NCBI GenBank assembly: GCA_003170115.1
Contig: PMZS01000194.1
Location: forward strand, 1-38,074
Source: Spirochaetaceae bacterium
Lineage (GTDB): Bacteria; Spirochaetota; Spirochaetia; SZUA-6; Fen-1364
Direction: 5' to 3'
DNA: 38,074 nucleotides
Below are positions 490 through 36,168 of this stretch, one piece after another. Under the pieces are notes generated by a model. It saw only the letters and a program-made list of their open reading frames with translations, did not search any database and was not told the DNA's origin. Position 1 is the first letter of the stretch; each line of letters starts with the position of its first letter. The position numbers and the translations under genes are program-made.

Positions 490-564
490 TGGGCGGCACT
501 GGACTCGAACCAGTGACCCCCAGCGTGTCGAGCTGGTGCTCTAACCAAACTGAGCTAGCCGCCC
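490..564 (-). tRNA. tRNA-Val (anticodon GAC), CCA not encoded
   Basis: The reverse complement folds by hand into a 75-nt cloverleaf. Acceptor GGGCGGC/GCCGCCC; D arm GCTC-AGTTTGGTTA-GAGC; anticodon arm CCAGC-TCGACAC-GCTGG; 5-nt variable loop GGGTC; T arm ACTGG-TTCGAGT-CCAGT; discriminator A. Confidence 0.85.
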
Positions 565-4382: not shown

Positions 4383-5279
4383 ATGCGGACATCCAAAGCG
4401 CGGCTGACGTATGTCCTTTGCCTCCTTTTCGCCGTGCTGGGGGCCGGTGCAGTTGCCGGCCTCGACCTGGGCATAGAGACATGGGTGGGCAACCTCGGGT
4501 TTCGTACCGACCGCGCGTCGTCCGACACGAGGCTTCCCGGCGGAGACTATTTCTGGGGGCTGTCGGTGTTCGGAACGCAGCCTCTCACGGACACGGTCAG
4601 CATGGAGACTGGTTTCTATTCCGACCCCGTGCTCCGCAACCTGTCGCGAACGATTTTCACGTACACTACGAAGTTTCTCAGCGTGGGAATGGGGCCCATT
4701 TTCGGGCTTTTCAATGACATCCGCACGCCGGTGAAGTCCGGACTGTCCGCCTCGGTGAGGCTTGAATACCCTGGAGTCATTTTCGTAACCCTGCGTTCAG
4801 ACAGCTCGATCGGCGGATCGCTCGTGCAGACTGGCGACTACACGCAGGAGCTTACGGATGTCACGCTCGGCGTCTACTTTCCCAACGCGATCTGCACGCT
4901 GGCCTGGACCAGTCGATCTTTTCAGCAGAAAGCGTCATCGCAGAACGTCACCGATGGCCTCACTGAATACACTTTCGCGGCCGAAGTATTCAAAAAAAAC
5001 GTGCCCTACCGTCTGCGCGTGTGGCTGGCGTACCAGGACCTCGCGAGATCCTACGATGCCGGCTCCACGACAACCGCGACGCTTGGATCCGTCATTCTTG
5101 GGACCCAGGTGGAAGTGACGCTGGCAGGGCCGCTTGTGCTCAGGGCAGGGCTCGAAGGGAACATCTACTCCTTCGGGCTGGGATCGCTCGTCGGCGGCGA
5201 TTCCGCGTTCCTTTTCCGCTCGTACGCCGGATTGAAGATGAACCTGGATTTCAACCCCCTCGTGTCTCGATTCCTTTAA
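4383..5279 (+). CDS. Secreted beta-rich hypothetical protein, possible outer-membrane protein
   Basis: Starts 6 nt after the previous stop. Signal peptide MRTSKARLTYVLCLLFAVLGAGAVAG. Beta-strand-like alternating pattern throughout. I recognise no family. Confidence 0.55.
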   Translation: MRTSKARLTYVLCLLFAVLGAGAVAGLDLGIETWVGNLGFRTDRASSDTRLPGGDYFWGLSVFGTQPLTDTVSMETGFYSDPVLRNLSRTIFTYTTKFLSVGMGPIFGLFNDIRTPVKSGLSASVRLEYPGVIFVTLRSDSSIGGSLVQTGDYTQELTDVTLGVYFPNAICTLAWTSRSFQQKASSQNVTDGLTEYTFAAEVFKKNVPYRLRVWLAYQDLARSYDAGSTTTATLGSVILGTQVEVTLAGPLVLRAGLEGNIYSFGLGSLVGGDSAFLFRSYAGLKMNLDFNPLVSRFL

Positions 5280-5295: not shown

Positions 5296-5323
5296 AACGG
5301 GCCCCCCTTTCGGGGAGCCCGTT
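5296..5323. terminator. Bidirectional intrinsic-terminator-like hairpin between convergent genes
   Basis: AACGGGCCCCC / GGGGaGCCCGTT forms an 11-bp GC-rich stem (one bulged A) with a 5-nt loop CTTTC. It sits between the stop of 4383..5279 (+) and the stop of flaA (-). The flanking T-tracts are only moderate. Confidence 0.55.
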
Positions 5324-5353: not shown

Positions 5354-6376
5354 CTACTGCGCGGGCTTTGTCGCGTCCATCTTCTGCTGTTCGAGGAACC
5401 GGAGAACCTGGATATTGCCAAGTCTCTTGAGGTCGGCCATCCGGCGCGCCTCCTGACGCTGCTGCAGAATGCCCCAGATCGCTTCATCGTTGATGTCGCG
5501 CTGGGTCTCGATGATCGCCTTGTCGTAGGTAACCTTGATATCCTTCAGGTAGGTGACAAAGTCGCCGCCCTCCTGCGCCGCGTCACGGTAGATGACGATT
5601 CCGACCAGCTTCACGTATGGCTCACCCTTCGGGTAAAGGGGGAACTTCCGCAGCTCCCGGTTGCGGACGTCGGTCACGTAGTTCGGGTTGTTCCAGGTGA
5701 GCGTCCGCCAGCCATCGAACTGCAGGTAATCCATGAAGATCGTCTGGTCGTTCCCGTCCTGGTCGGAAACGATGACCCCAATGCCGTTGGGGAAGTTCGC
5801 GCCATACACCGTGAGTGAGAGGCTCTTCAGGACGCCGACGTTCTTCACGACGCCGTAGCCGTTGAACTTCTCTCCCTTCCCCTTGTCCGCGTCCACGGTG
5901 ACGAGTCTCGACCCCTGCAGGGCATCCTTGTCCGCATATGCGGGGATGTCGAAGGGGGGCTTGATCATCGCCCACGAGTTGTACGGTTCAACCGGAAAAT
6001 GGATGCGGACCCCGAGGACCTTTTTGTTCGCGATGTCCTCACCATTGAACTGCTTCGCGTTCGAGTTCGTCGACGCTTCCTTGGTCATGGTGACGCTCTG
6101 ATTGGTGATTGACCGCGCGGAAGAGGCAAGGGTCACCTGCCAGTTGCCGAGGGCCAGCGACGATTTCATCGCCGCTTTCTCTTCATCGCTGAAGGACGCG
6201 CCTGCGACCGGGCTGTAGTCGATAAGCGTCAACCCGTTTTCAGTCGGCGTCTTGTTCGTCCCCACGGTCTGATCGGAACCAAGCTTGGTGAAATCGATCA
6301 GCACGGATTCGTCGGCAAAGAGCGCTGTTCCGCCGAGAAGAAGCCCGACGATAACAATAATGAACAGCCTTTTCAT
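5354..6376 (-). CDS. flaA: Flagellar filament outer layer (sheath) protein FlaA
   Basis: ATG 6376 preceded by AAAGGAG. Signal peptide MKRLFIIVIVGLLLGGTALFA, then ADESVLIDF. MIKPPFDIPAY, GYGVVKNVGVLKS, WNNPNYVTDVRNRE and RDAAQEGGDFVTYLKDIKVTYDKA closely match Treponema FlaA as I remember it. Confidence 0.95.
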   Translation of the reverse strand: MKRLFIIVIVGLLLGGTALFADESVLIDFTKLGSDQTVGTNKTPTENGLTLIDYSPVAGASFSDEEKAAMKSSLALGNWQVTLASSARSITNQSVTMTKEASTNSNAKQFNGEDIANKKVLGVRIHFPVEPYNSWAMIKPPFDIPAYADKDALQGSRLVTVDADKGKGEKFNGYGVVKNVGVLKSLSLTVYGANFPNGIGVIVSDQDGNDQTIFMDYLQFDGWRTLTWNNPNYVTDVRNRELRKFPLYPKGEPYVKLVGIVIYRDAAQEGGDFVTYLKDIKVTYDKAIIETQRDINDEAIWGILQQRQEARRMADLKRLGNIQVLRFLEQQKMDATKPAQ

Positions 6377-6420: not shown

Positions 6421-6448
6421 ATTATAGCAACGGGGTGTCCTTTGTCAA
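6421..6448 (-). promoter_or_regulatory. Consensus sigma70 promoter of flaA
   Basis: Minus strand TTGACA (rc 6443-6448), 16 nt, TATAAT (rc 6421-6426). A 44-nt leader carries SD AAAGGAG. The -35 hexamer overlaps the stop codon (6445-6447) of the upstream GerMN gene. Confidence 0.65.
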
Positions 6449-6948
6449 ATCTTTTTCTTTTCCGTGAAGATCGGCGCCTGCCCGTCGATGAAGAAGACGA
6501 CTTCAGCGAAGCGCGGGAAGTTCAGCTTCAGTGAGCGTGTGAGCGCGGCGAGAGCCTGCGGCCCCTTCAGGGGAACCTCGGGGTCGTCGACGAGGATCTG
6601 CGGCGTGAGGTCGAGGTACAACGTTCTGCCGCTCACCATGACTGCGATCACCGTCGCTCCCCTCGGAAAAAGACGCAGCGCATCGTGGCGCGTAGGACCG
6701 AGGAGCACGTTGTCCGCGATTTCCTGCACGTTCGCTTCCAGGGTCTGGTGACGCGGAACGAATCGCATCTCCGCCACGATGCGCCCGGGCAGCTGCGAAG
6801 GGAAGAAGAGTATCCGAGAGACCTTCGAATCCCCGAAGAGAAAAAAGAGCACGAGGGACACCACGAGTGTTCCGATGAAGGCGGCTCCCACAGCCGCCGG
6901 CGTCCCCCGGAGACGCATGCGCAGAAGAAAATCCAATCTATCGAGCAC
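6445..6948 (-). CDS. GerMN domain-containing membrane-anchored protein
   Basis: GTG 6948 lies 5 nt after GGGAG. N-terminal TM segment AAVGAAFIGTLVVSLVLFFLF. GerMN-like pattern: VLLGPT...LFPRGATVIAVMVSGRTLYLDL...ALTRSLKLNFPRFAEVVFFIDG. Overlaps the amidase stop by 11 nt. Confidence 0.75.
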   Translation of the reverse strand: MLDRLDFLLRMRLRGTPAAVGAAFIGTLVVSLVLFFLFGDSKVSRILFFPSQLPGRIVAEMRFVPRHQTLEANVQEIADNVLLGPTRHDALRLFPRGATVIAVMVSGRTLYLDLTPQILVDDPEVPLKGPQALAALTRSLKLNFPRFAEVVFFIDGQAPIFTEKKKI

Positions 6949-7984
6949 TGCCGCTCCCGCTCCGTTCGAATCCCTGGATGAATGCCTTCACTCCACTGTA
7001 CATGCCCTGCGCCACTTCGTTCAAGTACGCGGGGTCCGCGAGGCCCACGGCCTCCTCGGCATTGCTCACAAAACCAACCTCCGTGAGGACGGCGGGCATC
7101 CGCGCGTTGCGCACCACGTACCAGTCGTTCTGGCGCAGGCCCCGGTTGGCGCTCTTCTGCCCGAGGCTCGCCTCGAGTCCGGAGAGTATGTTCTGCGCCA
7201 GTATCGTGCTCTCCAGGGAGATCTCCTCTTCGCGCATGCTGTTGAGAATGGGAAGGATGTCGAGGTTCTCCTTGCCCGCGGCCTTCTCGTCGACGAGCGT
7301 GCGCTCGTAGGCGGGCGGGAGGCACCAGACCTCGAATCCGGAGGCTGTCTTGTTGAACGGAGAGGTGTTGGCGTGAATTGAGACGTACAGGATCGTATCC
7401 TTCGTCTTTTCCAGGAGCGCATTGGCGATGACGACGCGCTCCTCCAGGGACACGAACGTATCGTCGTTCCGAGTGAGAATCACCTCTTTCTCGGGGAACC
7501 CTTCCTTCAACAGTGCCGCAAGCGTGCGCCCCACGCTCAGCGTGATGTCCTTCTCCATCAATGGCACCTGCTTCTTCCCCGAGGAGACGCTGCCCACCGC
7601 CCCGCTGTCCTTGCCGCCGTGTCCCGGATCAAGAAGGATGTACTGCACGCGTAGGTGCTCCCCGGCGTGCGCCAGGCGGTCCTTCTGCACCGCGTCCCCG
7701 ATTTCCCCAACGGCCGCCGTGGTAAGCCACACCCCGCCGTTCCTTCGAACCGGTGCATCGATCTGCACCTTGATCCGGTAGTTGATCAGGGCGCTGTCAG
7801 CCCCCACGGCGACGGCGATCCTGTCGTCTCCGAACGAGATGACGCCCGCGTCCCGCAGAGGATCCCATTCGAGCGTGGCCCCCAGGTCGTTCGTGAGAGA
7901 CAGGATGTTCTTGTCCTGTGCGCCGATCAAGGCGCCGACTGCGAGCAGTGCACACACGAGGGCTGCGACTCTGGTGGACCTCAT
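6938..7984 (-). CDS. N-acetylmuramoyl-L-alanine amidase (Amidase_3 / AmiC-like) with signal peptide
   Basis: Signal peptide MRSTRVAALVCALLAVGALIGA. Catalytic-domain motifs ILLDPGHGGKDSGAVG, YVSIHANTS and NDWYVVRNARMPAVLTEVGFVSN. The start ATG overlaps the upstream stop (ATGA at 7981-7984). Confidence 0.9.
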   Translation of the reverse strand: MRSTRVAALVCALLAVGALIGAQDKNILSLTNDLGATLEWDPLRDAGVISFGDDRIAVAVGADSALINYRIKVQIDAPVRRNGGVWLTTAAVGEIGDAVQKDRLAHAGEHLRVQYILLDPGHGGKDSGAVGSVSSGKKQVPLMEKDITLSVGRTLAALLKEGFPEKEVILTRNDDTFVSLEERVVIANALLEKTKDTILYVSIHANTSPFNKTASGFEVWCLPPAYERTLVDEKAAGKENLDILPILNSMREEEISLESTILAQNILSGLEASLGQKSANRGLRQNDWYVVRNARMPAVLTEVGFVSNAEEAVGLADPAYLNEVAQGMYSGVKAFIQGFERSGSGSAR

Positions 7985-9576
7985 GAGTGGAGGAGAAACT
8001 CCCTGAGAAGGCCGCTGCGCACGGCCTCGCGAATGCTGTCCAGCACGTAGACGGCGCCCTGGCGCCCTCCTCTCACAAGCGCGCGCCAGAAGATACCGGA
8101 GAGATGGAAGCCGGCCCCGCCCGACAGCAGGCCTCCTCCCTGCTCGCAGGCCAGGCGGACCGATTCCGCGAAATCAATGCCGTGCCAGTCTCTGTCATGG
8201 AGAGCTTCCCATCCCGGCAGAGTCTCGATGGCAAGCGGTGCCGCGGGGTCGATACCAGTCAGCTCTCCATGACAGGCTGGCATCGCCTGGATTTGCGTCA
8301 TGAACTGCAAAGGGAGTCCGTCGAAGCAATCGTGTCCCGCTTCTCGAAACAGATGATCATTGGTTGCCTTGACCAGCGGGCGAAGTCGAATCTGGAATAA
8401 TCCAAGCGCGCGGCTGGCTGCTGCTTCAGCCCCGATCAGGCTCTCGGAAACTGCAAGCACGTTCCCGCACTTCTGCACATTGTTGGAGGGAAAGACTACA
8501 GCGTCTCCCCCCGCTATCCTGAGAAACACCTCCGCAACTCCCGGCACCTGACGCGCCTCTTCCGCACCGCTCAGCCGCTCGACGACTCCGGGGATTGAGA
8601 TCAAGGCGCGCTCCGCGCACACCTTTTCCTGCCGGGGCGTGAGATTGCCCGCTGGCAGACCCACCGCGATATTCAGAGCGGCCTCGGTCACCTCGACCCC
8701 GGAGGCCAGGGGGAAAGTCCACCCCGACATGTAGCCTCCGGAAAGTCGCGCGGCAATCTCGCCGACCATTGGCCCCCTCGGGGTCAGCTTGATGTCGCCC
8801 TTGGCGGCACCGTTGTCGATGCCAAGAGCCTTGATTCCTGCAAGGAAGACGGATTCGATTTCCTGCACGCTTTCCGGGGCGAAACCTGTCGGCATTGTAT
8901 GCCCCATCTCTACAAAGGACGGCGGAAACCGGATCAGCCTGTCCGCAACACCGCAGACGATGACCTTCCCCCTGTCCACGATCGCGTCGAGGCTGAACTC
9001 GGGGCCCTCCATATACTCCTCGATGATGACTCGCGATGTTCGCGAGAGGCTGAAAGCCACCCGGCACGCTTCGCCCAATTCGTCGGAGTTCTCAACTCGC
9101 TTGACCCCCCGTGCTCCCATGTTGTCCACGGGCTTTACCACGAGGGGAAAGGTCATCCCGGCGGCTTCGAGGCGTGCACCGGGGTCACCGGTACCGGCCC
9201 AGCAGACGAACCGAGGACCAGGCACTCCGGCAGCCCTGAAGGCTTCTCGCATGAGGCATTTGTCCGTAGCGCGCATCGCCGTGGCGTAGGAGATACCGGG
9301 AAGCCCCAGCTTCTCGGCGACCCATGCCACGGAGGATGAGAAATCGGTGCCCGCGGTAAAGACCCCGTCGAGGCCCGACTTCTCCCGGACGGAGCTCGCA
9401 AAAGCCAGGAGCCCATCCTTGTCCTTCAGATCGATACATTCGAAGACGTCCGCACGTGCTCGTGCGATCGCGTTCGGATTACCGTCCGCAAGCAGGATCC
9501 GCCATCCCTTGCGCCGGGCGATTCGGATGCCCGGCTCCTGCATGACTCCGCCGCCGAGGATCAGGATCGTGGTCAC
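7981..9576 (-). CDS. ATP-grasp domain carboxylate-amine ligase with an unassigned C-terminal extension of about 130 aa
   Basis: GTG start overlapping the upstream stop (GTGA). Rossmann-like N-terminus ILILGGGVMQ. ATP-grasp blocks FPLVVKPVDNMGARGVKRV, VIIEEYMEGPEFSLDAIV and GAAKGDIKLTPRGPMVGEIAARLSGG. I could not assign the last ~130 residues (PLVKATNDHLF...LREFLLHS). Confidence 0.8.
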   Translation of the reverse strand: MTTILILGGGVMQEPGIRIARRKGWRILLADGNPNAIARARADVFECIDLKDKDGLLAFASSVREKSGLDGVFTAGTDFSSSVAWVAEKLGLPGISYATAMRATDKCLMREAFRAAGVPGPRFVCWAGTGDPGARLEAAGMTFPLVVKPVDNMGARGVKRVENSDELGEACRVAFSLSRTSRVIIEEYMEGPEFSLDAIVDRGKVIVCGVADRLIRFPPSFVEMGHTMPTGFAPESVQEIESVFLAGIKALGIDNGAAKGDIKLTPRGPMVGEIAARLSGGYMSGWTFPLASGVEVTEAALNIAVGLPAGNLTPRQEKVCAERALISIPGVVERLSGAEEARQVPGVAEVFLRIAGGDAVVFPSNNVQKCGNVLAVSESLIGAEAAASRALGLFQIRLRPLVKATNDHLFREAGHDCFDGLPLQFMTQIQAMPACHGELTGIDPAAPLAIETLPGWEALHDRDWHGIDFAESVRLACEQGGGLLSGGAGFHLSGIFWRALVRGGRQGAVYVLDSIREAVRSGLLREFLLHS

Positions 9577-11360
9577 ACTTGTCCCTTCACGGCATATGCC
9601 TCGAACGTGTCACCCAGCCGCAGAAGAACACTGACTGTGCGCAGTGCCACTGCTGCTGCTCCCCACCTGCCGGCTGCCCTGCCGAGCAGCCCGGGAAACC
9701 GCTCCGGGTGATGGCCGGTGACTCTCACGCGCTGGAGCTTCAGGCCGTACCTCGCCAGTATTTTTCCAAGCTTTCGAGGGGAGAAAATCGTGAAATGGTC
9801 CCCTGGGCTGTTCAGGAGAAATCCTTGAAGATGGCGCCGCGCGGAAATACCACAGCCGTTCGGTGTGGAGAAGGCAAAGACGCCGCCCTCCGGAAGGAGC
9901 GCGGTGGCCTTGCCCAGCACTCCATCGGTGTGCGGGAAATGTTCGAGCACGTACCAGAGTGTGAGGGCGGCGATATGCCGGGGGAGCTTGTTCCGCTCCA
10001 CCTCTTCGAATCCCGCGCAGATCGCGGGCACACGGAGTGCCTTCCTCACGTACGATACGGCTCCCGGCGAGACGTCCAGCCCGAACCCGTGCATCCCGGA
10101 GTCGGCAAGGGCGGCCAGGAAAGGCCCATAGGCGCACCCGACATCGAGAACAACTCCTTCTGACGTCCGGCCAAGCAGCCGACGAATGATCGCGACCCGG
10201 GGCCGCGAGGCTGCCTTGATTGATTCGAAATCGTCCACGTAGGTCCGCCCGTACTGCGCCTTGTACTCAGTCGAAAAGTACGCGGTATCGTACTTCTTTC
10301 GACTGCCGGCGAAGCTTTCAAGCGAAATGGTCCCGCATGTCGCGCAGCGTCGGTAGGTCCGGTCTGAAAACCGGGCGATGACAACGTTGCCGGTTCGACC
10401 GCACACCGGGCAGTCCTTGCTCCCGACGACGCTGAGAGAGCCGAGCACGCGCGCGAGTTTCTTTCCCCGTTCGCTGCCCACTTTTTCATTGAATTGATCG
10501 ACGTGGCCCTGGAGTCGAACCGGGTCCGCCAGCAGCTTTTTCAGAGCGTCTGCGCGCACGGTCCCGATCCCGATCATCGAAAACCCGGCGGCGGCGCCGA
10601 GTCGGGCATGGTACCTCGAAGGGTTGAAGAGGATAGCAGGGATCCCGACGGCAAGTGCCTCGAAGGCACCCATGCCAAAGTGTGTGATCAACAGGTCATG
10701 CCGGCTGAGCATGCCCGCAAGACCGTGCGGGGCGCGGATGACCTTGACGCCGTCGGGCCACTCGCGCCTTCCGGACAGCGGGCCTTCCACGACCGTGAGC
10801 TGCCCTGGCAGGAAAAGCCCAGCCGCCACAACAGACTGCGCCAGCCGCTCGCCCAGGTGTTCACCGTCCTCACCGCCGAGGCTGACCAGAATTTTCTTCC
10901 AGGCCTTCGCCGGCTTCGTGCGCACGCGGCGTGGAAGGAAGAGAAACGAAGCATCGGCCAGGTTGGCGCCGGATCTGCCAGGAAGCCCTGGCAGGGTATC
11001 CAGAATGAATGATGCAAAGTTGCGCGCCTCTCCACCTTCGTCAAGGAAGGCAACCAGACCGTGCGTCATCAGCTCCTCGAGCTCCCGTGTCGAAGTCCTC
11101 CGCGCATCGACTATGATCAAGTCCCAGCGCCTTCCCCCCGGGATTTGCGGCAACGCGGCGGGTCTCGGACGCCTCGGGTTCCTGGCAAGTTCTTCAGCCA
11201 GGAGCCTCCTCGCACCCTGACCCAGGTGACGCGTAAGGAAGGATACATGGGATCCCAGTTGCTCGGAGAGCTTCAAGCAACGGACAAGATGTCCCACGCC
11301 CTCCCCCGCTCCACCGGCTGGAACAAGAAGGAATGAGCGTCGTGTGTCAGCTTTCGCCAT
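9573..11360 (-). CDS. Fusion protein: PseG/SpsG-like GT-B (UDP-sugar hydrolase/transferase) domain, Zn-ribbon and class I SAM-dependent methyltransferase
   Basis: ATG 11360 lies 6 nt after AAGGAG; the longer ORF to 11387 starts at GTG. N-terminal half: PAGGAGEGVGHLVRCLKLSEQL...ILVSLGGEDG...LLITHFGMGAFEALAVGIPAILF (PseG/MurG-like). Then CPVCG...CATCG (Zn ribbon). Then the SAM motif I VLDVGCAYGPFL. Confidence 0.75.
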   Translation of the reverse strand: MAKADTRRSFLLVPAGGAGEGVGHLVRCLKLSEQLGSHVSFLTRHLGQGARRLLAEELARNPRRPRPAALPQIPGGRRWDLIIVDARRTSTRELEELMTHGLVAFLDEGGEARNFASFILDTLPGLPGRSGANLADASFLFLPRRVRTKPAKAWKKILVSLGGEDGEHLGERLAQSVVAAGLFLPGQLTVVEGPLSGRREWPDGVKVIRAPHGLAGMLSRHDLLITHFGMGAFEALAVGIPAILFNPSRYHARLGAAAGFSMIGIGTVRADALKKLLADPVRLQGHVDQFNEKVGSERGKKLARVLGSLSVVGSKDCPVCGRTGNVVIARFSDRTYRRCATCGTISLESFAGSRKKYDTAYFSTEYKAQYGRTYVDDFESIKAASRPRVAIIRRLLGRTSEGVVLDVGCAYGPFLAALADSGMHGFGLDVSPGAVSYVRKALRVPAICAGFEEVERNKLPRHIAALTLWYVLEHFPHTDGVLGKATALLPEGGVFAFSTPNGCGISARRHLQGFLLNSPGDHFTIFSPRKLGKILARYGLKLQRVRVTGHHPERFPGLLGRAAGRWGAAAVALRTVSVLLRLGDTFEAYAVKGQV

Positions 11361-12096
11361 CGCCCGCTCCTTCGACCGCTGCGGCACGTGCCGGCGAGCG
11401 CTCCTTGAGCCACGCCACTACGCTTTCGATTTCGATCGGTTTTCCCCCGTACAGGTCCAGGAAAAGCCGAGTCACTACGTCGAGGTCCGCTCCAGTATCG
11501 ACCGTCACCCGTCCCTCCGCGTATGCGGCGTAAGGTGGGGCCTGGGCCTCGAGAATTTTGAACCGCTCAGGATGCCGGTAGAGAAAGGTGGTGATATGCT
11601 CCCTTTCGTCCGGCAGGGTGGAATCGCGCTCCGCTTCGAACAACGACCCGGCACTCACCACCTCAATGCCGGAACCCCACGGGACGCCGAGGTAGTGGCT
11701 GAGATCTGCCCGAGCCCTTTCATGCTCCTCGATGATATCGCGCGCCAGGCGCGCGGAGGCAAGCGGGTTGTCGCCCGTGGCGCGAATCACACGGTCGGTT
11801 CCGTACAGGCGGCCGGCCATACAGTAGCGGGCGAGCACGTCCTCGTCGGGACCGGCGAGAACCTCGTATCCCTCCGCCGCGGCCAGCGGACGAAGCGCCT
11901 CAACGCTCTTGCCGTCTGTCAGGAGAGCACGCACGTCCGCGGGCACCGCCGCCAGAGCCCGCATGACGTGCTGGATGAGGCACCCGCCGGGGAGGGGGAG
12001 TAAAGCCTTGGAGGGCAGCCGCGTGGAGCCGAGACGCACCTGGACGTAGATGCCTGTTGACACGTCAGGAACGCTCCCAGCCATCGACGAGGTCAC
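11347..12096 (-). CDS. SpsF/NeuA-like cytidylyltransferase family protein
   Basis: N-terminal YVQVRLGSTRLPSKALLPLPGG plus RATGDNPL and GVPWGSGIEVV resemble acylneuraminate/SpsF-type cytidylyltransferases. The start is uncertain (GTG 12096, ATG 12084 or GTG 12063). Overlaps both neighbours. Confidence 0.7.
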   Translation of the reverse strand: MTSSMAGSVPDVSTGIYVQVRLGSTRLPSKALLPLPGGCLIQHVMRALAAVPADVRALLTDGKSVEALRPLAAAEGYEVLAGPDEDVLARYCMAGRLYGTDRVIRATGDNPLASARLARDIIEEHERARADLSHYLGVPWGSGIEVVSAGSLFEAERDSTLPDEREHITTFLYRHPERFKILEAQAPPYAAYAEGRVTVDTGADLDVVTRLFLDLYGGKPIEIESVVAWLKERSPARAAAVEGAGDGES

Positions 12097-13027
12097 GGGG
12101 ATCGCGGCGGAACCTGAACCGGTGCGTGCGCACCCAGCGGCGGACGATCCGGAACTCCTTCACCGCATAGAAAGGGCCGGTATCCGAATGAAGCATGAAG
12201 TCCAGCGCCCGCCATGTCGGGAGGACGCCCATTTCCCTGCGCATCCTCACGGCCATGTTCTTCAACCAGACCTGCTTGTAGCCCTCGTCCGGTGTCGTGT
12301 CTTCCTCCGGAGGAGAGCCGGTGTAGGTCAGCCTCATCCTGAGCGTGCCAAGGAGCCGCTCGCCCCAGAGGAAACAACGCAGGCCGAAATCCAGCTTCTG
12401 CCAGTAGGGGTTGGCAATGCCCGGATCGTAGCCGCCCGTCTGCGCGAACTTCAGGCGATTGTACAGCCCGCAATAGTCGAACGGGAAAAGGATCCTCTCT
12501 CCCTCGACACGCGGCACATGGTAGGCCATCGAGAAGCGCCTCTTCTTCCACATCGGCGCCTGCCAGGTGGGGATGGGCTCGTCGCGAACCGTGCGCGCCA
12601 CCGGCACAGTGCAGAGCACACCTGATTTCTCCATGGATCCGAGGAGCGCCGATGGAAACTCGACAAGCCTCGTGTCGCTCCAGCTGACCATGACCATCGG
12701 GGCACGGGCCTCGTCGATTCCGATGTTCACCCGGTCTCCCGCCGTGCTGCGGTCGGCGACCAGGAGAAATCTCACCTGGGGGAACTCCCGTGAAAGCGGT
12801 TCCACGTCCGTGGATGACTCCGATCCCTCGATCCAGAGAATTTCCCCGAGGGACCGTGCGAGAAGATCCTTGAGCATATCGGATTTGAACAGCCTGTCCC
12901 CCCTGCCCAGGACGAGCAGCGTGAGAGGAAAGGGGTGGCGCCGCACGCGGTCCCATCGGGGGCCGCCCACGACGGTGTACGGGCTGCGGGAACCGGTCTC
13001 AGAAATTGTACGTGTAGTATTCATCAC
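12065..13027 (-). CDS. Hypothetical protein, GT-A (family 2-like) glycosyltransferase fold suspected
   Basis: Coding-looking ORF coupled to both neighbours. TGGYDPGIANPYWQKLDFGLRCFLWGERL resembles the GGFDE...EDxDL..R...G block of GT2 enzymes. I found no clear DxD motif. Start GTG 13027 or ATG 13024. Confidence 0.45.
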   Translation of the reverse strand: MMNTTRTISETGSRSPYTVVGGPRWDRVRRHPFPLTLLVLGRGDRLFKSDMLKDLLARSLGEILWIEGSESSTDVEPLSREFPQVRFLLVADRSTAGDRVNIGIDEARAPMVMVSWSDTRLVEFPSALLGSMEKSGVLCTVPVARTVRDEPIPTWQAPMWKKRRFSMAYHVPRVEGERILFPFDYCGLYNRLKFAQTGGYDPGIANPYWQKLDFGLRCFLWGERLLGTLRMRLTYTGSPPEEDTTPDEGYKQVWLKNMAVRMRREMGVLPTWRALDFMLHSDTGPFYAVKEFRIVRRWVRTHRFRFRRDPRDLVDGWERS

Positions 13028-14486
13028 AGGCGGCGCAGATCCCCGGGTAGTCGCCGGAGAGGTGCGAGCGGTGGATCCCTCGCGCCGATTCCCAGATAGC
13101 CGAGAGATCGTCCTCCAGTGCGTTTCCCAGCTTCATGCTTCCACGGATGTCTTCCTTGCACAACGGGACCGTCCCGTCCAACAGGATCGCCATGTCACGC
13201 TTCAAGTGCCAGCACGTGAATCGCTTCAAGGGAGAAAGGTCCGCCACTTTCCGGTCCGGCAGCGCACCGCTGAACGCGTCGTACTTCTGGATGATGACGT
13301 TCTCCGTTCGCGCTTTCCACGCGCGGAAAAAGATCTCCAGGTCATCCTCGTTTTCCTTCATGCGAACCGCCTGCACCCAGGTACGGCCCGGGAAAACCCC
13401 CAGGAGCTCCTCCGCCGTTTTCGACGCGGCAGCGAAACCCTCTCCGCGAAGCTTCCGATACGCCGTTTCATTGGACGCATCAAGGGACACGATCCAGCGA
13501 GGCTGCTTTTCCCTTGCCGACTTGATGCGCGGGAAGATGCCCGATTCCCACCCGATGCCCGACGTCTCGATTACCAGCTCGATGCCTGGGACGTCGAGGG
13601 CCGCGAGGATCATCTCGTAAATGCGGGGGTGCAGGGCCGGCTCCCCCCAGAGGGAGATGTCGACAACGGCGTCACCCGCGAAGTTCGCGATCTTCGTGAC
13701 CAGGCGGGAGAAGCTTTCCAGCGGCATCGAGCCGGTCTTCTCCAGTATGTTCCCGCCGATGAGCGGGTACGGGCAGTACGTGCACGCCTGGGGGCAGCGT
13801 TCTACGATCTGAACAGGAAAAAACGCCGGCAGCGTGCGGTGGACTTTCTGGTTCTCACGAAGAAGCGCGCATGCCCCCTGGGCATCGCGGACGCCACCGG
13901 CCACGATCCGCGAGAGCAGCATGAAATTGCGCTCCGAGTCCGCTGTCAGGGAAAGGCGCATCAGACGCATGTCATGCGGGGAGATCTCCGTCTCGATGTC
14001 GAACGAGTTGATGTCCTTTTTCAGTACCGTGAACAGCATGTCCCGACGGAGCGCAACCGCCTCGTCTGCCATTCCCCGGAGTCTCTTCAAGGATTCACAG
14101 GTGAGAAGCTCCGGCGTGATTCCGTATGGGTATCCATCCGCAAACGTGTAATCGGCCCAGTACCGCACATGGTTCGCATGCATCCGCGCGGCAATCTCCG
14201 AGTCAAGAAACGGGCAGTCCGCGAAAAAATAGAAGATCGTGTCACAGCCTTCCGCAGCGGTTGTCATTTCCGAGAGGAGCTCCGCAACTGTCCATGAGGA
14301 GCGAACGATCGATCGTACACCCTCGGGCATGTCCGCGGGCTTCGAAAGGAAGACAACTGTCTCTGAGACTCCGGGAAGGGCTTGGCCGAACTCCAGCGAG
14401 CGATTGAAAGATGATTTTCCTTCCCAGAGCGGCCGGAACGCCGGCGCGCGCAAGTCAATCCCGTTGATAAGCGAGATGTTTTTCAT
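12999..14486 (-). CDS. Radical SAM / SPASM-domain protein with an N-terminal nucleotidyltransferase-like domain (spiro-SPASM-type)
   Basis: ATG 14486. Radical SAM cluster motif CPQACTYC (CxxxCxxC). C-terminal Cys-rich SPASM-like tail: FTCWHLK...PLCKEDI...GICAACDEYYTYNF. N-terminal ~170 aa (FFADCPFLDSEI, ADGYPYGITPELL) resemble the C-terminal part of SpsF-like enzymes. Confidence 0.8.
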   Translation of the reverse strand: MKNISLINGIDLRAPAFRPLWEGKSSFNRSLEFGQALPGVSETVVFLSKPADMPEGVRSIVRSSWTVAELLSEMTTAAEGCDTIFYFFADCPFLDSEIAARMHANHVRYWADYTFADGYPYGITPELLTCESLKRLRGMADEAVALRRDMLFTVLKKDINSFDIETEISPHDMRLMRLSLTADSERNFMLLSRIVAGGVRDAQGACALLRENQKVHRTLPAFFPVQIVERCPQACTYCPYPLIGGNILEKTGSMPLESFSRLVTKIANFAGDAVVDISLWGEPALHPRIYEMILAALDVPGIELVIETSGIGWESGIFPRIKSAREKQPRWIVSLDASNETAYRKLRGEGFAAASKTAEELLGVFPGRTWVQAVRMKENEDDLEIFFRAWKARTENVIIQKYDAFSGALPDRKVADLSPLKRFTCWHLKRDMAILLDGTVPLCKEDIRGSMKLGNALEDDLSAIWESARGIHRSHLSGDYPGICAACDEYYTYNF

Positions 14487-14497
14487 ATCCTTCGTTG

Positions 14498-14527
14498 ATA
14501 ATATCGACAGATTAACAGGAAGTTCAA
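14498..14527 (-). promoter_or_regulatory. Possible promoter of the seven-gene operon
   Basis: Minus strand TTGAAC (rc 14522-14527), 18 nt, TATTAT (rc 14498-14503), ending 11 nt before ATG 14486, within the only AT-rich stretch of this intergenic region. Confidence 0.3.
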
Positions 14528-14530
14528 GAA

Positions 14531-14570
14531 ACTGGCTGCTCCGCAGCAAATCACTGGCTGCTCCGCAGCA
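14531..14570. repeat. Two tandem 18-nt direct repeats (22-nt period), each containing a palindrome
   Basis: ACTGGCTGCTCCGCAGCA at 14531-14548 and again at 14553-14570. Each copy carries GCTGC-TCC-GCAGC. Located in the divergent intergenic region between the operon start (14486) and xseA (14623). Confidence 0.8.
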
Positions 14571-14586
14571 CGGCAGAGGCCGCGCA

Positions 14587-14615
14587 TTGCCAATCGTGAA
14601 GCGCCGGTGTAACCT
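14587..14615 (+). promoter_or_regulatory. Possible xseA promoter at leaderless spacing
   Basis: TTGCCA (14587-14592), 17 nt, TAACCT (14610-14615), 7 nt, ATG 14623. No SD in between. Confidence 0.3.
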
Positions 14616-14622
14616 GCCTCAT

Positions 14623-15846
14623 ATGCCGGCCAGCCCCGCGGAGCGCGTTTATACCGTGACCGAGATCACCCAGCTCATCAAGGCAACCCTCGAGGAGGGT
14701 TTCCCCTGGGTGACCGTTCAGGGCGAGATATCGAACTTCAGGCCCGCCAGCTCGGGCCATTGGTATTTCAGCCTGAAAGACACGGATGCGCTCATTTCCG
14801 TCGTGATGTTCAAAGGCAGGCTGGACGGGGTGCGTTTCACGCCCGCGGACGGCACTCTCGTGAAGGCCGCGGGAAGCGTCTCCGTGTACGCCCGACGCGG
14901 CAACTACCAGCTTATCTGCGAGTCCCTCATCAAGGCAGGCGAGGGAGATCTGCTTGCCCGGATGGAAGAGCTGAAGCGCAGGCTCGCCGCGGAAGGCCTT
15001 TTCGACCTGGACCGCAAGAAGCCGCTCCCCCTCTATCCTTCACGTGTTGCCGTGGTGACATCTCCGACTGGCGCCGCGGTCCGCGACATCCTGCGGGTCC
15101 TGCGGCGCCGCAGCGCCGGGGTGGACGTGGTGATCGTTCCCACGCCGGTACAGGGCGAAGGCGCCGAAGAACGCATTGCCCGCGCCATCGAGATTGCCGA
15201 TCGTCATCGCCTCGGAGAGGTCATCATCGTGGGAAGGGGTGGAGGGTCCCTCGAGGACCTTCTGGCATTCTCATCCGAGATCGTCGTGCGCGCCATCGCC
15301 GCGTCCAGGACCCCGATCATCTCCGCGGTCGGACACGAGACGGACGTCACCCTCTCGGACCTTGCGGCCGACGTTCGCGCCCCCACCCCGTCGGCCGCCG
15401 CTGAGATGGTGGCAGCCTCGCGCCCGGACCTGCTGGCGCGAGTGCGCGGCATGCAGGATTCAATGGCCTCCGGATTGCGCCAGCGGACGGAGCGCGTAAG
15501 ACTTCTCATGGCGCAGTTTGCCGCGGAAAACCTCGCGCGCAACGTCCGACTGTTCGTCCGACCCCTTTCCCAGACGGCCGACTACGCGCGGGAGGAGCTG
15601 ATGCAGGGATTCCGGGAAATGGTGAGGGCGCTTCGGCACCGCACCGCCCTTGCATCGCGGGAGCTTGCATCGTACTCGCCCCTGGAGATCCTTGCCCGCG
15701 GATACGCGGTGGTCACCCATGAGCCCACGGGGAAGATCCTGCTCTCCCCTGCCCACGTGCAGCGCGGAGAACTTCTTTCCATCAGGCTCTCGCGCGGAGG
15801 GATCCGCGCAACCGTGGAGGATACCAATGCCGGCGAAAAGCAGTGA
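14623..15846 (+). CDS. xseA: Exodeoxyribonuclease VII large subunit
   Basis: From ATG 14623: MPASPAERVYTVTEITQLIKATLEEGFPWVTVQGEISNFRPASSGHWYFSLKD, then RVAVVTSPTGAAVRDI, IIVGRGGGSLEDL and PIISAVGHETDVT. The upstream part of ORF 14239.. is antisense to the radical SAM gene and intergenic. Confidence 0.95.
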   Translation: MPASPAERVYTVTEITQLIKATLEEGFPWVTVQGEISNFRPASSGHWYFSLKDTDALISVVMFKGRLDGVRFTPADGTLVKAAGSVSVYARRGNYQLICESLIKAGEGDLLARMEELKRRLAAEGLFDLDRKKPLPLYPSRVAVVTSPTGAAVRDILRVLRRRSAGVDVVIVPTPVQGEGAEERIARAIEIADRHRLGEVIIVGRGGGSLEDLLAFSSEIVVRAIAASRTPIISAVGHETDVTLSDLAADVRAPTPSAAAEMVAASRPDLLARVRGMQDSMASGLRQRTERVRLLMAQFAAENLARNVRLFVRPLSQTADYAREELMQGFREMVRALRHRTALASRELASYSPLEILARGYAVVTHEPTGKILLSPAHVQRGELLSIRLSRGGIRATVEDTNAGEKQ

Positions 15847-16105
15847 TTCCAAAAAGGCTCCCCTGGGTTTCGAGCAGCGCCTGGAGCGGCTGGAGCATCT
15901 CGCCGAAATGCTGCGCGACGGGAATATCCCCCTTGAGGATGCAGTGGCGATCTTCGAAGAGGGGATGAAGCTGTCCAAGTCACTGGAAAAGGACCTGTCG
16001 AGAGTGGAGCGGAGGGTGGAAATCCTTACGCGGGAACCAGCGAGCGAGGCCGATGATCCGGGCCTTGCCCTTTTCCCGGAGCTCGATGAGGAGGAGAAGG
16101 AATAG
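15827..16105 (+). CDS. xseB: Exodeoxyribonuclease VII small subunit
   Basis: ATG 15827 lies 6 nt after GGAGG and overlaps the xseA 3' end by 20 nt. FEQRLERLEHLAEMLRDGNIPLEDAVAIFEEGMKLSKSLEKDL is the typical XseB pattern. Confidence 0.9.
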   Translation: MPAKSSDSKKAPLGFEQRLERLEHLAEMLRDGNIPLEDAVAIFEEGMKLSKSLEKDLSRVERRVEILTREPASEADDPGLALFPELDEEEKE

Positions 16106-16109
16106 TCGC

Positions 16110-16164
16110 CGCGGATTCGCGTCGCGGTATTCCGCGGATTCGCGTCGCGGTATTCCGCGGATTC
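16110..16164. repeat. 23-bp tandem repeat (2.4 copies) built from five CGCGG(T)ATTC sub-motifs
   Basis: CGCGGATTCGCGTCGCGGTATTC at 16110-16132 and 16133-16155, plus a partial CGCGGATTC at 16156-16164. Can form CGCGG-TATT-CCGCG hairpins. Lies between the convergent stops of xseB (16105) and the DUF192 gene (16176). Confidence 0.85.
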
Positions 16165-16175
16165 AGGCAGCCGAT

Positions 16176-16604
16176 TCATGGGAAACGATTCGGGAATTGA
16201 AACTTGTCCCCTTCGCTGATGCCGAGCTCAGCGAAGGCGCCCTTTCTCATTTCCAGAGCGTAGCGGGCAGACAGTCGGGAGCGCACGATTGTCTCGGAAA
16301 AGGGTTGCATGTCCTCGATCTGCAGAATCTTTCCATCGGCCGCGAGAAATGCAATGGAAAGCGGGCTCGGCGTGTTCTTCATCCAGAATGAAAGGTGATC
16401 ATCCCGGTCGAACACGAATATCATGCCGTCCCGGGGCCCCAGGTTCGCCCTCTCCATGAGTCCGCGTTCCCGCTGCGCTTCGGTGCGTGCCACTTCCACG
16501 GTTAGCGATTGCCCGGCGGCGCGGAGCGTGACACGTTCTGGTGGAGATTGGCATGAGGAGAACCAGGCTGAGATCAGGATGAACGCAACGACCTTACTGG
16601 ACAT
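16176..16604 (-). CDS. DUF192 domain-containing lipoprotein
   Basis: Lipobox-like ISAWFSSC. RERGLMER..GMIFVFD...SFWMKNTPSPLSIAFL..GKIL...ARYALEMRKG matches the DUF192 pattern. Confidence 0.8.
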   Translation of the reverse strand: MSSKVVAFILISAWFSSCQSPPERVTLRAAGQSLTVEVARTEAQRERGLMERANLGPRDGMIFVFDRDDHLSFWMKNTPSPLSIAFLAADGKILQIEDMQPFSETIVRSRLSARYALEMRKGAFAELGISEGDKFQFPNRFP

Positions 16605-17868
16605 GGACCATCCAGCCCTTCAGGTATTCACCTTCAGGGTGCGAGGCGGCAACCGGGTGATCGAGGTCCGCGTGCAGCTCGCCCAGCAGCCGTGCCGCCC
16701 TGCCGGACCGCAGGGCCGCCTCCGCGACGACCTGCTGGAACGTCGCCCGGTCCACGGCCCCCGAGCAGGAAAAGAGAAAGGCCAGGCCTCCGGGTGAGAG
16801 GATGCGCAGGCATTGTTGAAAGAGGCTGAGGTAGCCTTTCAGTGCCCCTTCACGCTCGACCCTGCGGCGGGCGAATGGCGGGGGATCAGCCACGAGCACG
16901 TCGCAGCGCGGCGGCGACTCGAGGAACGTGAAGACATCCGCCTGCACCCATTCGAATGCGTCGCTCTTGAGGCCCGGGGAAAGGCTCACGCTCGCTTCCG
17001 CCAGGTCGAGGGCGCTGCGGGAGCTGTCCACCGATATCACTTTCCGCGCACCGGCGGCGGCCGCGCGGAGTGCGACGGCACCGGTGTATGAAAAAAGATT
17101 GAGCACGGTCTTGTCCCTGCTGCAGCGCGATATCAGGGTCCTGTTCGCACGCTGGTCGAGATAGAAGCCCGTTTTCTGGCCGTGGGCAAAATCGACCCTG
17201 AGCCGCACCCCTCCTTCGCGGATCACCGTCGAGCCCTCGCCCTCACCACGAGCGTAGCCGGAGGCCGTGCTCAACTTTTCCACGCGGGCAAAGTGCTCAT
17301 CCCTGCGGATGAACACGTGAAGGTCTGACCGCATGCCCCGGAGGCTGTCCACGATCCTCTCGAGCCCCGCCTCGACGCCCCGGGTGTGCGGGCACACGAC
17401 GGCCGTGTCGGCGTAGAGATCGATCACCAGTCCTGGAAGGAAATCACCTTCCGCATTCACAATGCGATAGGAATCGGTGTCGAGGCCGAGCCCGGTTCGG
17501 AGGCTCCAGGCCGCTTTTATGCGCTGCTCGATCCAATCCTCCTCGGGTTTTTCAGCGGAATAGGACACCATCCGCACCGCAATGAGGCTTTCGGGCGAGT
17601 GCTGGCCCCACCCTATCACGGACCCGTCCGCGGCGCGGACAGGAAGGATGGACCCCGCGGGAGCGGACTCGTCGACATACGCAATGGCCTGGCTGTAGAT
17701 CCAGGGGTGATGCCGGCGGCGCACTGGGCCGTCCCGGCCTTCCTTGAGGAGAATGCCCGGCGCCGAAGGCGCGTTTCTCTCCCGGGTTTCAGAACTGCTC
17801 AAGAAACTTCTCGCGAGAGAGCTGATCGAGGTCTTTCTGTGCGCCGCCTTTGGACAGAATCGCGGCAA
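16594..17868 (-). CDS. rlmI: Class I SAM-dependent rRNA methyltransferase, RlmI-like (PUA + MTase)
   Basis: LLKEGRDGPVRRRHHPWIYSQAI (RlmI-type N-terminus), QKTGFYLDQRANR, VLNLFSYTGAVAL and VADPPPFA. The start is uncertain: the ORF begins at TTG 17868 inside the upstream gene, and TTG 17802 is an alternative. Confidence 0.8.
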   Translation of the reverse strand: MPRFCPKAAHRKTSISSLARSFLSSSETRERNAPSAPGILLKEGRDGPVRRRHHPWIYSQAIAYVDESAPAGSILPVRAADGSVIGWGQHSPESLIAVRMVSYSAEKPEEDWIEQRIKAAWSLRTGLGLDTDSYRIVNAEGDFLPGLVIDLYADTAVVCPHTRGVEAGLERIVDSLRGMRSDLHVFIRRDEHFARVEKLSTASGYARGEGEGSTVIREGGVRLRVDFAHGQKTGFYLDQRANRTLISRCSRDKTVLNLFSYTGAVALRAAAAGARKVISVDSSRSALDLAEASVSLSPGLKSDAFEWVQADVFTFLESPPRCDVLVADPPPFARRRVEREGALKGYLSLFQQCLRILSPGGLAFLFSCSGAVDRATFQQVVAEAALRSGRAARLLGELHADLDHPVAASHPEGEYLKGWMVHVQ

Positions 17869-21659: not shown

Positions 21660-22713
21660 CGCCCATCGCGGGTGCCGGGAAAGTGGAGTAGTAAAACTCC
21701 TCCCATATCCCCAATGCCCGGTCGTACCAGCCGGCCGTGAGATCGACCGTCGGCGAGGTTCCCGCGGCCGAAAGGACCCCCGATGCCAGGTCATCCGCTC
21801 CCACGTCCAGCTCCACCGCGGTTCCAAGTGTTTTCACGGTCCCCAGCAGTCGGGGAGCTGACCCTTTCTGCCACAGGATGCACGCTCCTCGATCGCCCCT
21901 GGCCATTGGCTCGATCTCCAGCGTGAGGGGGTTCTCTCTTCCCGCGGCGCGGGTGTCGAAAACATACAGAAAATACGAGACAGAAGGTGAGAAGCCGCCA
22001 GGCACATTCAGGGCCAGCTTCAGGCCGTCGGAGTCCAGGGAGCCCTGCACGGACGCGATCCGAGTGCCCGTCTGGGTCCAGGAACGCGATTCAGAGATCG
22101 ACAGAACCTTGAAGCTTCCGCTGCTTTCCCGGGTGAAAACAGCCGGGTCGAAAGAAGAAGAGAAAGTGACGATAGCCGGCAGCCCCGTGGTCCCCGTGGG
22201 CGCTCCTGTCCCCTCAGTGTCCGTGGTTCGGTTCGACGCGACAGTCGTGCCCTGGGCAGAGGCAGGGCGAGCGTACTGCGCGAGCTTTCCGACACCTCGT
22301 CGTACGTTGAGCTGTGCCGGGCTCGCAAATACCGCGTAGAAACGCTCTCCGACGCTGCTATCGGCCTGCAGGGCCACCACACGGACAGGGAAATCATCCG
22401 CATCCAGCTGCGCGAAAAAGCCGACAAGAAGGTGCACACCCTCCGTCAGGCCTGTGAGCTTCGCCTCTGCCTGGGGAGCCAGGGCGGCGAAGGTGGCGCC
22501 GGTGTCCGCCGTGGAAAAGTATGCCGCCACCTTGCTCGCAAGGAGCGGGCTTCCGGCCGTCAGGCCGGAGAGCTCCTTCGGATCGATCACGTAATAGAAG
22601 GTCGAGTCCTCCTGGTTCTGCAGGGACACGACGGGGCTCTGCCCGAAGGCAAGCGCGCAGGTAAAAGCGGCGGCGGCCGCACACAGCAGTGTCTTGTTCA
22701 TTGGTCTCCTCAT
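21649..22713 (-). CDS. Secreted hypothetical protein (last gene of the TPR / sensor-phosphatase operon)
   Basis: ATG 22713 overlaps the upstream stop (ATGA); an alternative ATG is at 22701. Signal peptide MNKTLLCAAAAAFTCALAFG. No family recognised. The 3' end overlaps ychF by 11 nt in convergent orientation. Confidence 0.6.
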   Translation of the reverse strand: MRRPMNKTLLCAAAAAFTCALAFGQSPVVSLQNQEDSTFYYVIDPKELSGLTAGSPLLASKVAAYFSTADTGATFAALAPQAEAKLTGLTEGVHLLVGFFAQLDADDFPVRVVALQADSSVGERFYAVFASPAQLNVRRGVGKLAQYARPASAQGTTVASNRTTDTEGTGAPTGTTGLPAIVTFSSSFDPAVFTRESSGSFKVLSISESRSWTQTGTRIASVQGSLDSDGLKLALNVPGGFSPSVSYFLYVFDTRAAGRENPLTLEIEPMARGDRGACILWQKGSAPRLLGTVKTLGTAVELDVGADDLASGVLSAAGTSPTVDLTAGWYDRALGIWEEFYYSTFPAPAMGATR

Positions 22714-36167: not shown

Positions 36168-36168
36168 C

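Follow-up and report, generated by a model that had tools for sequence, protein, structure and literature searches.

In this work we examined a run of seven minus-strand genes, here called g1 to g7, that ends immediately upstream of flaA in a Spirochaetaceae bacterium (NCBI GenBank assembly GCA_003170115.1, contig PMZS01000194.1, positions 1 to 38,074 of the forward strand; this whole stretch of 38,074 nucleotides (nt) is referred to as the window). We read the locus as a composite of three parts, termed module A (g1–g4), module B (g5–g7) and flaA, that are often, not always, joined in Spirochaetia. Module A would tailor a cytidine monophosphate (CMP)-activated ulosonic sugar of nonulosonic type, probably for flagellin, and module B would serve peptidoglycan remodelling or cell separation. 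Taken jointly, the whole of this reading receives a probability of roughly 0.45 from us; what we infer in it are the substrates, flagellin as the acceptor and what g5 does. The genes are as follows.

12999–14486, minus strand: g1, spiro-SPASM protein of 495 amino acids (aa), from the list of open reading frames (ORFs)
12065–13027 (or from an ATG at 13024), minus strand: g2, predicted GT-A-fold protein, from the ORF list
11347–12096, minus strand: g3, SpsF/KdsB-like cytidylyltransferase (CTP_transf_3, PF02348)
9573–11360, minus strand: g4, PseG/SpsG-like GT-B domain, zinc ribbon and S-adenosylmethionine (SAM) methyltransferase (Methyltransf_23, TIGR03590)
7981–9576, minus strand: g5, predicted cytoplasmic ATP-grasp ligase of the L-amino-acid-ligase type (ATP-grasp_4, LAL_C2)
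6938–7984, minus strand: g6, predicted secreted N-acetylmuramoyl-L-alanine amidase (Amidase_3, PF01520)
6445–6948, minus strand: g7, predicted membrane-anchored GerMN protein (Germane, seen in orthologues)
5354–6376, minus strand: flaA, periplasmic-flagellum sheath protein (PF04620 at 246.7 bits)

Neighbouring genes overlap at every junction within the block, namely by 26–29 nt at g1/g2, 20–32 nt at g2/g3, 14 nt at g3/g4, 4 nt at g4/g5 (GTGA), 4 nt at g5/g6 (ATGA) and 11 nt at g6/g7. An earlier reading of the window from its letters alone, hereafter the sequence-only reading, had given these seven overlapping genes with correct coordinates and had placed flaA about 70 nt behind them; the ATG of flaA lies at 6376, after a spacer of 68 nt from the g7 stop. 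Upstream of g1 the neighbour is the divergent xseA, so the block starts at g1. In the 26 nt shared by g1 and g2 (12999–13024) the DNA is dual coding, one frame giving the conserved g1 tail CDEYYTYNF and the other the likewise conserved head of g2, beginning MNT. The sequence-only reading had further taken the seven genes, which end just before flaA, as a single unit coupled in translation. Its overlaps and the position of flaA stand, whereas the single unit is an overstatement, because a break between g4 and g5 recurs in other genomes and flaA carries a promoter of its own.

The case for a composite is made by gene order, which we compared over about 160 related loci. A search of species-representative genomes with g1 yielded 80 loci, all Spirochaetota, comprising metagenome-assembled genomes from peat, fen and sediment as well as Treponema and Oceanispirochaeta. 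Order and tight spacing recur in these 80 loci down to 35–40% identity, which exceeds what chance would give. The overlap of g1 and g2 is exactly 26 nt in 74 of 77 loci, g2 and g3 lie within 20 nt of each other in 72/72, g4/g5 and g5/g6 overlap by a median of 4 nt, and the gap between g7 and flaA is always 57–235 nt. The cultured Brucepastera parasyntrophica (CP084606) has an identical layout including the divergent xseA, which is the divergent neighbour, about 70 nt away, in 47 loci.

Metagenome contigs were also searched with a Treponema-type g5 profile and the neighbours mapped, giving 80 further loci of which 57 were informative. Module A, g5 and the amidase are contiguous in 47, and in 8 others g5 and the amidase stand together, mostly with GerMN and flaA, with no module A directly upstream; module A plus g5 without the amidase occurs in none of the 80 g5 loci. 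These counts place the breakpoint between g4 and g5 and show that g5 belongs with the amidase. Where module A is absent, the gene before g5 is RodA following PBP2 (locus L118, 76–3298; locus numbers are ours), a NamZ exo-muramidase (L110, 1533–2894) or something unrelated. Module A is likewise found by itself, as g1-g2-g3/4 without g5–g7 and flaA, in T. putidum, an oral-metagenome Treponema and T. phagedenis. In T. putidum (L073) it is followed by an FGGY carbohydrate kinase whose gene shares 4 nt with the end of the g3/4 fusion, then an iron-dependent alcohol dehydrogenase (the two spanning 15136–17805 of that locus) and ruvB, and the kinase and dehydrogenase may be extra pathway members in this lineage. 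A CDP-alcohol phosphatidyltransferase precedes module A in T. phagedenis. In T. pallidum, each of the pairs TP0284/285, TP0286/287 and TP0288/289 forms a single gene (PMC3265458), and one g1 relative bears the source name 'TP_0285'; judged by this adjacency and name, TP0284–0289 are probably module A (g1, g2 and g3/4). The composite reading fits the breakpoint data best and we prefer it over its rivals.

Signals in the DNA on either side of the block and behind flaA are listed below.

14498–14527, minus strand: candidate g1–g7 promoter TTGAAC-18-TATTAT in the g1/xseA gap, weak (9/12) and not above chance alone
6421–6448, minus strand: flaA promoter TTGACA-16 nt-TGcTATAAT, 12/12 sigma-70 match with extended −10
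5302–5316, minus strand: terminator-like hairpin with T-rich tail 3′ of flaA, the next gene (4383–5279) being convergent

A single operon that includes flaA is not supported, since a conserved sigma-70 promoter stands between g7 and flaA. Its −35 hexamer includes the g7 stop codon TGA (6447–6445), and a ribosome-binding site, aaaggag, lies 6 nt 5′ of the flaA ATG. A promoter scoring at least 10/12 with a 16–17-nt spacer is found about 45 nt 5′ of this ATG in 45 of 49 loci. The flaA gene of T. denticola (TDE1712) is transcribed together with the four ORFs before it from a sigma-70 promoter ahead of TDE1716 (PMC9481697), a finding that the sequence-only reading had overlooked; it indicates that read-through and a dedicated flaA promoter can coexist. 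As part of the same joint estimate, flaA would be transcribed mainly from its own strong sigma-70 promoter, with upstream read-through possible. The adjacency of g7 and flaA is not universal, as flaA is not 3′ of g7 in the Treponema locus L069. At the other end of the block, the longest g1 ORF opens at TTG 14549 and the ATG at 14486 agrees with the N-termini of orthologues; the candidate promoter falls between the two and thereby favours 14486 as the start. A riboswitch or other RNA in the spacers was also considered and rejected, since Rfam shows tRNA-Val alone, outside the spacers.

The first gene of module A, g1, had been described in the sequence-only reading as NTP-transferase-like plus radical SAM plus SPASM, which is right for its folds and domains and overlooked that a curated family exists. 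The protein scores 556.7 bits against TIGR04321 (cut-off 250), with residues 11–495 of 495 matched. TIGR04321 is the NCBIfam-curated spiro-SPASM family, with function and substrate unassigned, and a literature search under the family name 'spiro-SPASM' returned no paper. Radical_SAM (PF04055) matches at 52 bits and SPASM (PF13186) at 35 bits (cut-off 21.5), and the radical-SAM motif CX3CX2C is present as C231-x3-C235-x2-C238 (13777–13800). A SPASM domain is expected to bind two auxiliary clusters through seven or eight cysteines (CX9-15GX4C … CX2CX5CX3C … C). By this measure g1 has a short SPASM part: it holds just C425, C443, C484 and C487, all invariant, and the chain ends 8 residues past the CxxC. 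The four C-terminal cysteines are consistent with one auxiliary cluster of a twitch-like kind. In the AlphaFold2 model (predicted local distance difference test, pLDDT, 93) the protein has two parts, an N-domain of about residues 1–215, which Foldseek matches to the fold of the Leptospira borgpetersenii cytidylyltransferase 6oew (TM 0.72), and a radical-SAM/SPASM body, which it matches to SuiB, CteB, anSME and BtrN. We rejected a role for g1 as maturase of a ribosomally synthesized and post-translationally modified peptide (RiPP), there being no precursor-peptide gene and no small conserved ORF beside g1, and the N-domain having a cytidylyltransferase fold.

The CX3CX2C motif is intact in the window copy and in all 110 of its close relatives. 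It is gone in 17 of 73 genome loci (including L023, L044, L058, L060, L063, L066, L068–L074, L076, L078 and L080), in lineages with separate as well as fused g3/g4, and in 62 of 119 relatives of the T. putidum g1; proteins without it occur in T. pedis, T. phagedenis, T. vincentii and strain OMZ 788, and the 'TP_0285'-named protein is another. These orthologues keep the four C-terminal cysteines, the CDEYYT[YF]NF tail and the N-domain residues. Loss of the radical-SAM cysteines while the rest is conserved points to a conserved role of g1 that is independent of SAM radical chemistry, and the radical step looks like an optional decoration retained by free-living lineages.

The rest of module A is made of proteins whose folds are recognizable and whose exact families are less so. 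No Pfam or NCBIfam family matches g2, and as the search of its profile against PDB sequences gave only a marginal nucleotidyltransferase match (E 0.023), we turned to a fold search. The AlphaFold2 model (pLDDT 86) has a GT-A fold, with GT27 polypeptide GalNAc-transferases as best Foldseek matches (probability 1.0, TMq 0.55–0.63), and where the strand ending in DxD is expected there is a single invariant aspartate (W116-S/N-D118). The family is small, with 184 clusters at E<1e-30 among 1.84 billion representatives. On this model g2 is predicted to be a cytoplasmic GT-A glycosyltransferase-like protein. CTP_transf_3 (PF02348) matches g3 at 64 bits; its orthologues match KdsB-type models in 29/29 cases and PseF (TIGR03584) in 3/29 (best 3e-7), all below cut-off. 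The closest solved structure is 6oew (profile E 2.6e-40), the same structure that shares its fold with the g1 N-domain. In g4, Methyltransf_23 scores 72 bits, the zinc ribbon has four conserved cysteines (C317/C320/C339/C342), and the solved structures nearest to the methyltransferase are the zinc-ribbon nucleoside diphosphate (NDP)-sugar C-methyltransferases TcaB9 and 5t64. Its GT-B half carries the PseG-like motif GxGxGH..R, in which G19, G21, G23, H24 and R27 show at least 90% conservation, or no variation at all, among 36 orthologues. The histidine of GxGHxxR is the proposed catalytic residue of PseG, from the structure of the C. jejuni enzyme. PseG (TIGR03590) is matched by 26 of the 36 g4 orthologues, all below cut-off (best 1.5e-12), and the window copy, at 24.8 bits, stays under the cut-off of 153.6. 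In 20 of 69 loci g3 and g4 form a single ORF of 810–890 aa; these are Treponemataceae (L073, at 12497–15139, and L045, L050, L054, L055, L057, L059 and L061 among others).

Module B is best read as a murein module made of an amidase, its GerMN partner and a cytoplasmic amide-forming ligase. Amidase_3 (PF01520) matches g6 at 154 bits against a cut-off of 27, the layout is signal peptide, Cu_amine_oxidN1-like domain and Amidase_3, and the translation opens with a hydrophobic, signal-like N-terminus. The AmiA/B/C and CwlD models match below cut-off. By its sequence g6 is a predicted secreted N-acetylmuramoyl-L-alanine amidase. The Germane domain (PF10646) of g7 is detected in 25 of 31 aligned orthologues (best E 6.4e-13), with the window copy below threshold and the match in Brucepastera weak; the motifs LLGP, Y.DLS, NFP and G line up across the aligned orthologues. 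For g5, ATP-grasp_4 scores 57 bits and LAL_C2 55 bits, the closest solved structure is the L-amino-acid ligase 3vot (E 2e-20), and a conserved C-terminal extension of about 130 aa is uncharacterised. Profile and fold searches thus confirm the domain guesses that had been made for all seven products, in the case of GerMN through the orthologues of g7. In B. burgdorferi, the gene bb0668 is flaA. PMC11863449, citing Yang & Li (2009), describes an operon that promotes cell division, bb0665-bb0667, with the amidase BB_0666 among its products, and BB_0666 is listed with the B. burgdorferi divisome (PMC11185795).

A sugar on flagellin and a modification of peptidoglycan had been put forward for this locus as competing hypotheses; probably each of them fits a different half, the former g1–g4 and the latter g5–g7. 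In the pathway that we propose, module A would be a set of cytoplasmic enzymes, peculiar to spirochetes, for tailoring a sugar nucleotide; g3 would make a CMP-activated 2-keto-3-deoxy (ulosonic) sugar, and the PseG/SpsG-like half of g4 would carry out a nucleotide-sugar hydrolase step of a pseudaminic/legionaminic-type route whose core enzymes would be encoded elsewhere. The zinc-ribbon methyltransferase half of g4 may methylate the sugar or its acyl side chain. The cytidylyltransferase-like domain of g1 could dock the cytidylylated intermediate, and in lineages with CX3CX2C, including this one, g1 could then alter the docked intermediate by radical chemistry. As a putative GT-A transferase, g2 would have the FlaB flagellin core as its likeliest acceptor. 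In module B, g6 would split septal or lateral murein with g7 as its membrane-anchored GerMN partner, and g5 would form an amide bond in the cytoplasm, probably on a substrate related to murein peptides.

Several published observations bear on module A. B. subtilis requires SpsG to make legionaminic acid and the putative cytidylyltransferase SpsF to transfer it to the forespore surface (PMC7439481). The FlaB proteins of T. denticola carry a pseudaminic-type sugar with a 2-methoxy-4,5,6-trihydroxyhexanoyl chain, a sugar indispensable to assembly of the filament, and the synthase gene pseI (TDE0960) lies at a separate locus (PMC13439194, PMC9862357); the 2-methoxy group implies that O-methylation is needed. 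The mass of this FlaB glycan is 450.2 Da. Synthase orthologues of T. pallidum and T. denticola, similar to LegI/PseI, were included in a cross-complementation panel (bioRxiv 10.1101/2022.03.25.485807). Treponema whose flagellin bears a pseudaminic-type sugar have module A by itself. Given this set of sugar enzymes and a Treponema flagellin glycan whose synthase is encoded elsewhere, the flagellin glycan is the most economical target of module A, and the link between the two is circumstantial.

That said, a number of points weigh against this assignment. Neither g3 as a PseF/NeuA CMP-nonulosonate synthetase nor g4 as a PseG, over its GT-B domain, reaches the level of an equivalog. As the sequence-only reading had noted for the window, the core nonulosonic-acid enzymes are missing: no 4,6-dehydratase, aminotransferase, N-acetyltransferase or NeuB/PseI-type synthase was detected in the 38-kb window or among the recurrent neighbours of the 80 loci. 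A Maf-type flagellin transferase is already present in T. denticola (bioRxiv 10.1101/2023.12.03.569772), which leaves g2 without an assigned role. In the Treponema clade with the known glycan g1 has lost the radical-SAM cysteines, so that radical chemistry cannot be a requirement for this glycan. The surroundings are syntenic as well (xseA, a PEGA protein, DUF192, SpoIIE, YchF and RelA_SpoT-TPR), and part of the conservation of gene order is accordingly general synteny. Lastly, translation of modules A and B is coupled in most lineages, and this could be a sign that the two share a function in the cell wall.

This last point leads to a reading, unlikely in our view, in which the whole g1–g7 block works for the cell wall: the methylated CMP- or CDP-sugar of module A would be put on lipid II, peptidoglycan or a wall-linked polymer by the GT-B and GT-A proteins, and that wall then remodelled by g5–g7. 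The 4-nt median overlap of g4 and g5 fits it, as do the 47 contiguous cases among 57 informative g5 loci and the company of PBP2-RodA or NamZ that module B keeps where module A is absent; in the window, the strand of the block also carries rodA and a fragment of PBP2. It also gains from the weakness of the PseG match of g4, and PseG and MurG have the GT28 fold and a glycine-rich/histidine N-terminal motif in common. What speaks for keeping the modules apart is that module A stands alone, far from wall genes, in oral Treponema and T. phagedenis, and that it includes no membrane anchor or lipid-carrier enzyme. We know of no such peptidoglycan decoration from spirochete muropeptide studies. The three adjacent ORFs TP0284–0289 of T. 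pallidum, probably module A, argue in the same direction (PMC3265458).

Equally improbable to us is that module A is unconnected with nonulosonic acids and makes another cytidylylated metabolite (a Kdo-like 8-carbon sugar, a cofactor or a lipid head group), with g1 mainly a non-radical scaffold or binding protein. Here the better match of g3 to KdsB models than to PseF or NeuA finds a natural place, and so do the repeated loss of radical-SAM cysteines from an otherwise conserved g1 and the varied neighbours, such as the CDP-alcohol phosphatidyltransferase of T. phagedenis and the glycerol-kinase-like FGGY gene of T. putidum. To our knowledge T. pallidum has no lipopolysaccharide, which weighs against this explanation; that T. 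pallidum appears to retain module A as TP0284–0289 does so too (PMC3265458). The PseG-type motif together with the SpsF/SpsG-like pairing and fusion points to the nonulosonic-acid route instead (PMC7439481).

We consider it quite unlikely that flagellin or the flagellar sheath is the target of the whole set of seven, with g5 attaching the N-acyl chain to a nonulosonic acid and the amidase and GerMN protein opening the murein for periplasmic flagella. Such a scheme would explain the constant position next to flaA, and the g5-g6-g7-flaA adjacency persists where module A is lost, presumably also in Borrelia and T. pallidum. The amide-linked hexanoyl chain of the T. denticola glycan needs a ligase (PMC13439194), and flaA of this species is co-transcribed with the four ORFs upstream of it (PMC9481697). 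The separate, conserved flaA promoter and the lack of flaA after g7 in L069 count against the scheme. FlaA itself is reportedly Sec-exported and was described as non-glycosylated in T. pallidum. Further, in PMC11863449 the Borrelia amidase operon is tied to cell division, not motility. Very unlikely, finally, is the most far-reaching proposal, that module A makes a new methylated CMP-ulosonic derivative, radical-SAM-tailored in free-living lineages, which the GT-B and GT-A proteins place on peptidoglycan or lipid II and not on flagellin, as a spirochete-specific murein decoration whose synthesis would be coupled to g5–g7 and to flaA, the product of which sheathes the periplasmic flagellum that rubs against this wall.

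Other features of the window deserve mention. Antisense to the conserved g1 and g2 runs a plus-strand ORF of 576 aa (12567–14297), which we set aside as probably an artefact of high G+C content; its G+C at third codon positions is 0.64 as against 0.70–0.83 for seven opposite-strand genes, g1 and g2 being unscored. At 33876–37997 on the minus strand, a radical-SAM protein (Radical_SAM_N2 + DUF2344) lies directly 3′ of rodA (36169–37509) and a fragment of a PBP2 transpeptidase at the edge. The plus-strand ORF at 31934–33076 is an unusual fusion of a Rex-like N-terminus (Put_DNA-bind_N + CoA_binding) and a thioredoxin-like [2Fe-2S] ferredoxin. Two very large overlapping minus-strand genes occupy 22710–30661, one of 1596 aa (BNR/Ig-like, HAMP, SpoIIE phosphatase) and one of 1054 aa with no family match; a SpoIIE/HAMP gene recurs as a neighbour in related loci. 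UPF0164, presumably known mainly from Treponema, is fused to a TPR repeat at 30682–31926 on the plus strand. The sole Rfam/ARAGORN match in the window is one tRNA gene.

490–564, minus strand: tRNA-Val (GAC)

Module A is spirochete-wide and apparently retained in the reduced genome of the syphilis agent (TP0284–0289) with its function unassigned. If it is true that module A finishes or activates the unusual flagellin sugar of T. denticola, on which filament assembly and motility depend, it would supply missing steps of the pathway to this sugar, and would offer pathogen-specific targets. Since host-associated Treponema have repeatedly lost the radical-SAM site, their glycan is predicted to differ chemically from that of free-living relatives. 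The trio of ATP-grasp ligase, amidase and GerMN protein may determine the manner in which a spirochete splits its wall, and the constant flaA promoter provides a clean element for expression studies.

All domains of the locus come from known superfamilies, and the family of g1 has a name. What is undescribed is how they are combined, what the pathway makes and what g2 does. The sequence-only reading knew of no described pathway of this composition and we found none. Within TIGR04321, g1 is an ordinary full-length, high-scoring member. It resembles anSME, SuiB, CteB and BtrN in its radical-SAM core, first SPASM motif (C-x12-G-x4-C) and overall fold. Unlike these SPASM/twitch enzymes, it has just four auxiliary cysteines because the protein stops right after the CxxC, its orthologues often lack the cysteines of the SAM cluster, and it has a cytidylyltransferase-like N-domain in place of a peptide-recognition (RRE) domain and no precursor peptide gene. 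Module A shares with the B. subtilis sps genes (SpsF, SpsG, SpsA) and with PseF/PseG of Campylobacter and Helicobacter the combination of CTP_transf_3, a PseG-like GT-B and a GT-A protein, together with the GxGH..R motif of PseG, and it is plausible that the core chemistry, in which an ulosonic acid is activated with CMP, is shared too. It departs from them in that the cluster and its conserved flanks have no dehydratase, aminotransferase, acetyltransferase or NeuB-type synthase, that g3 and g4 fall well below the PseF and PseG cut-offs, that a zinc-ribbon methyltransferase is fused to the PseG-like domain, and that a radical-SAM/SPASM protein with a cytidylyltransferase-like domain is added.

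In module B, g5 has the ATP-grasp fold, LAL_C2 and the conserved catalytic core of L-amino-acid ligases (BL00235/3vot, RizA, BacD) and ATP-grasp murein side-chain ligases. It differs from the L-amino-acid ligases in its extra C-terminal domain of about 130 aa, and in its context of amidase, PBP2-RodA or NamZ, where those enzymes have an antibiotic or dipeptide cluster. Like the AmiA/B/C and BB_0666 systems, module B has a secreted Amidase_3 protein, encoded directly 5′ of a small GerMN gene and flaA. Compared with cell-separation amidases, its partner is GerMN, not a LytM activator, and an ATP-grasp ligase is translationally coupled to the amidase. Through the amidase BB_0666 it can be likened to bb0665-bb0667 of Borrelia, the operon for which promotion of cell division is reported (PMC11863449).

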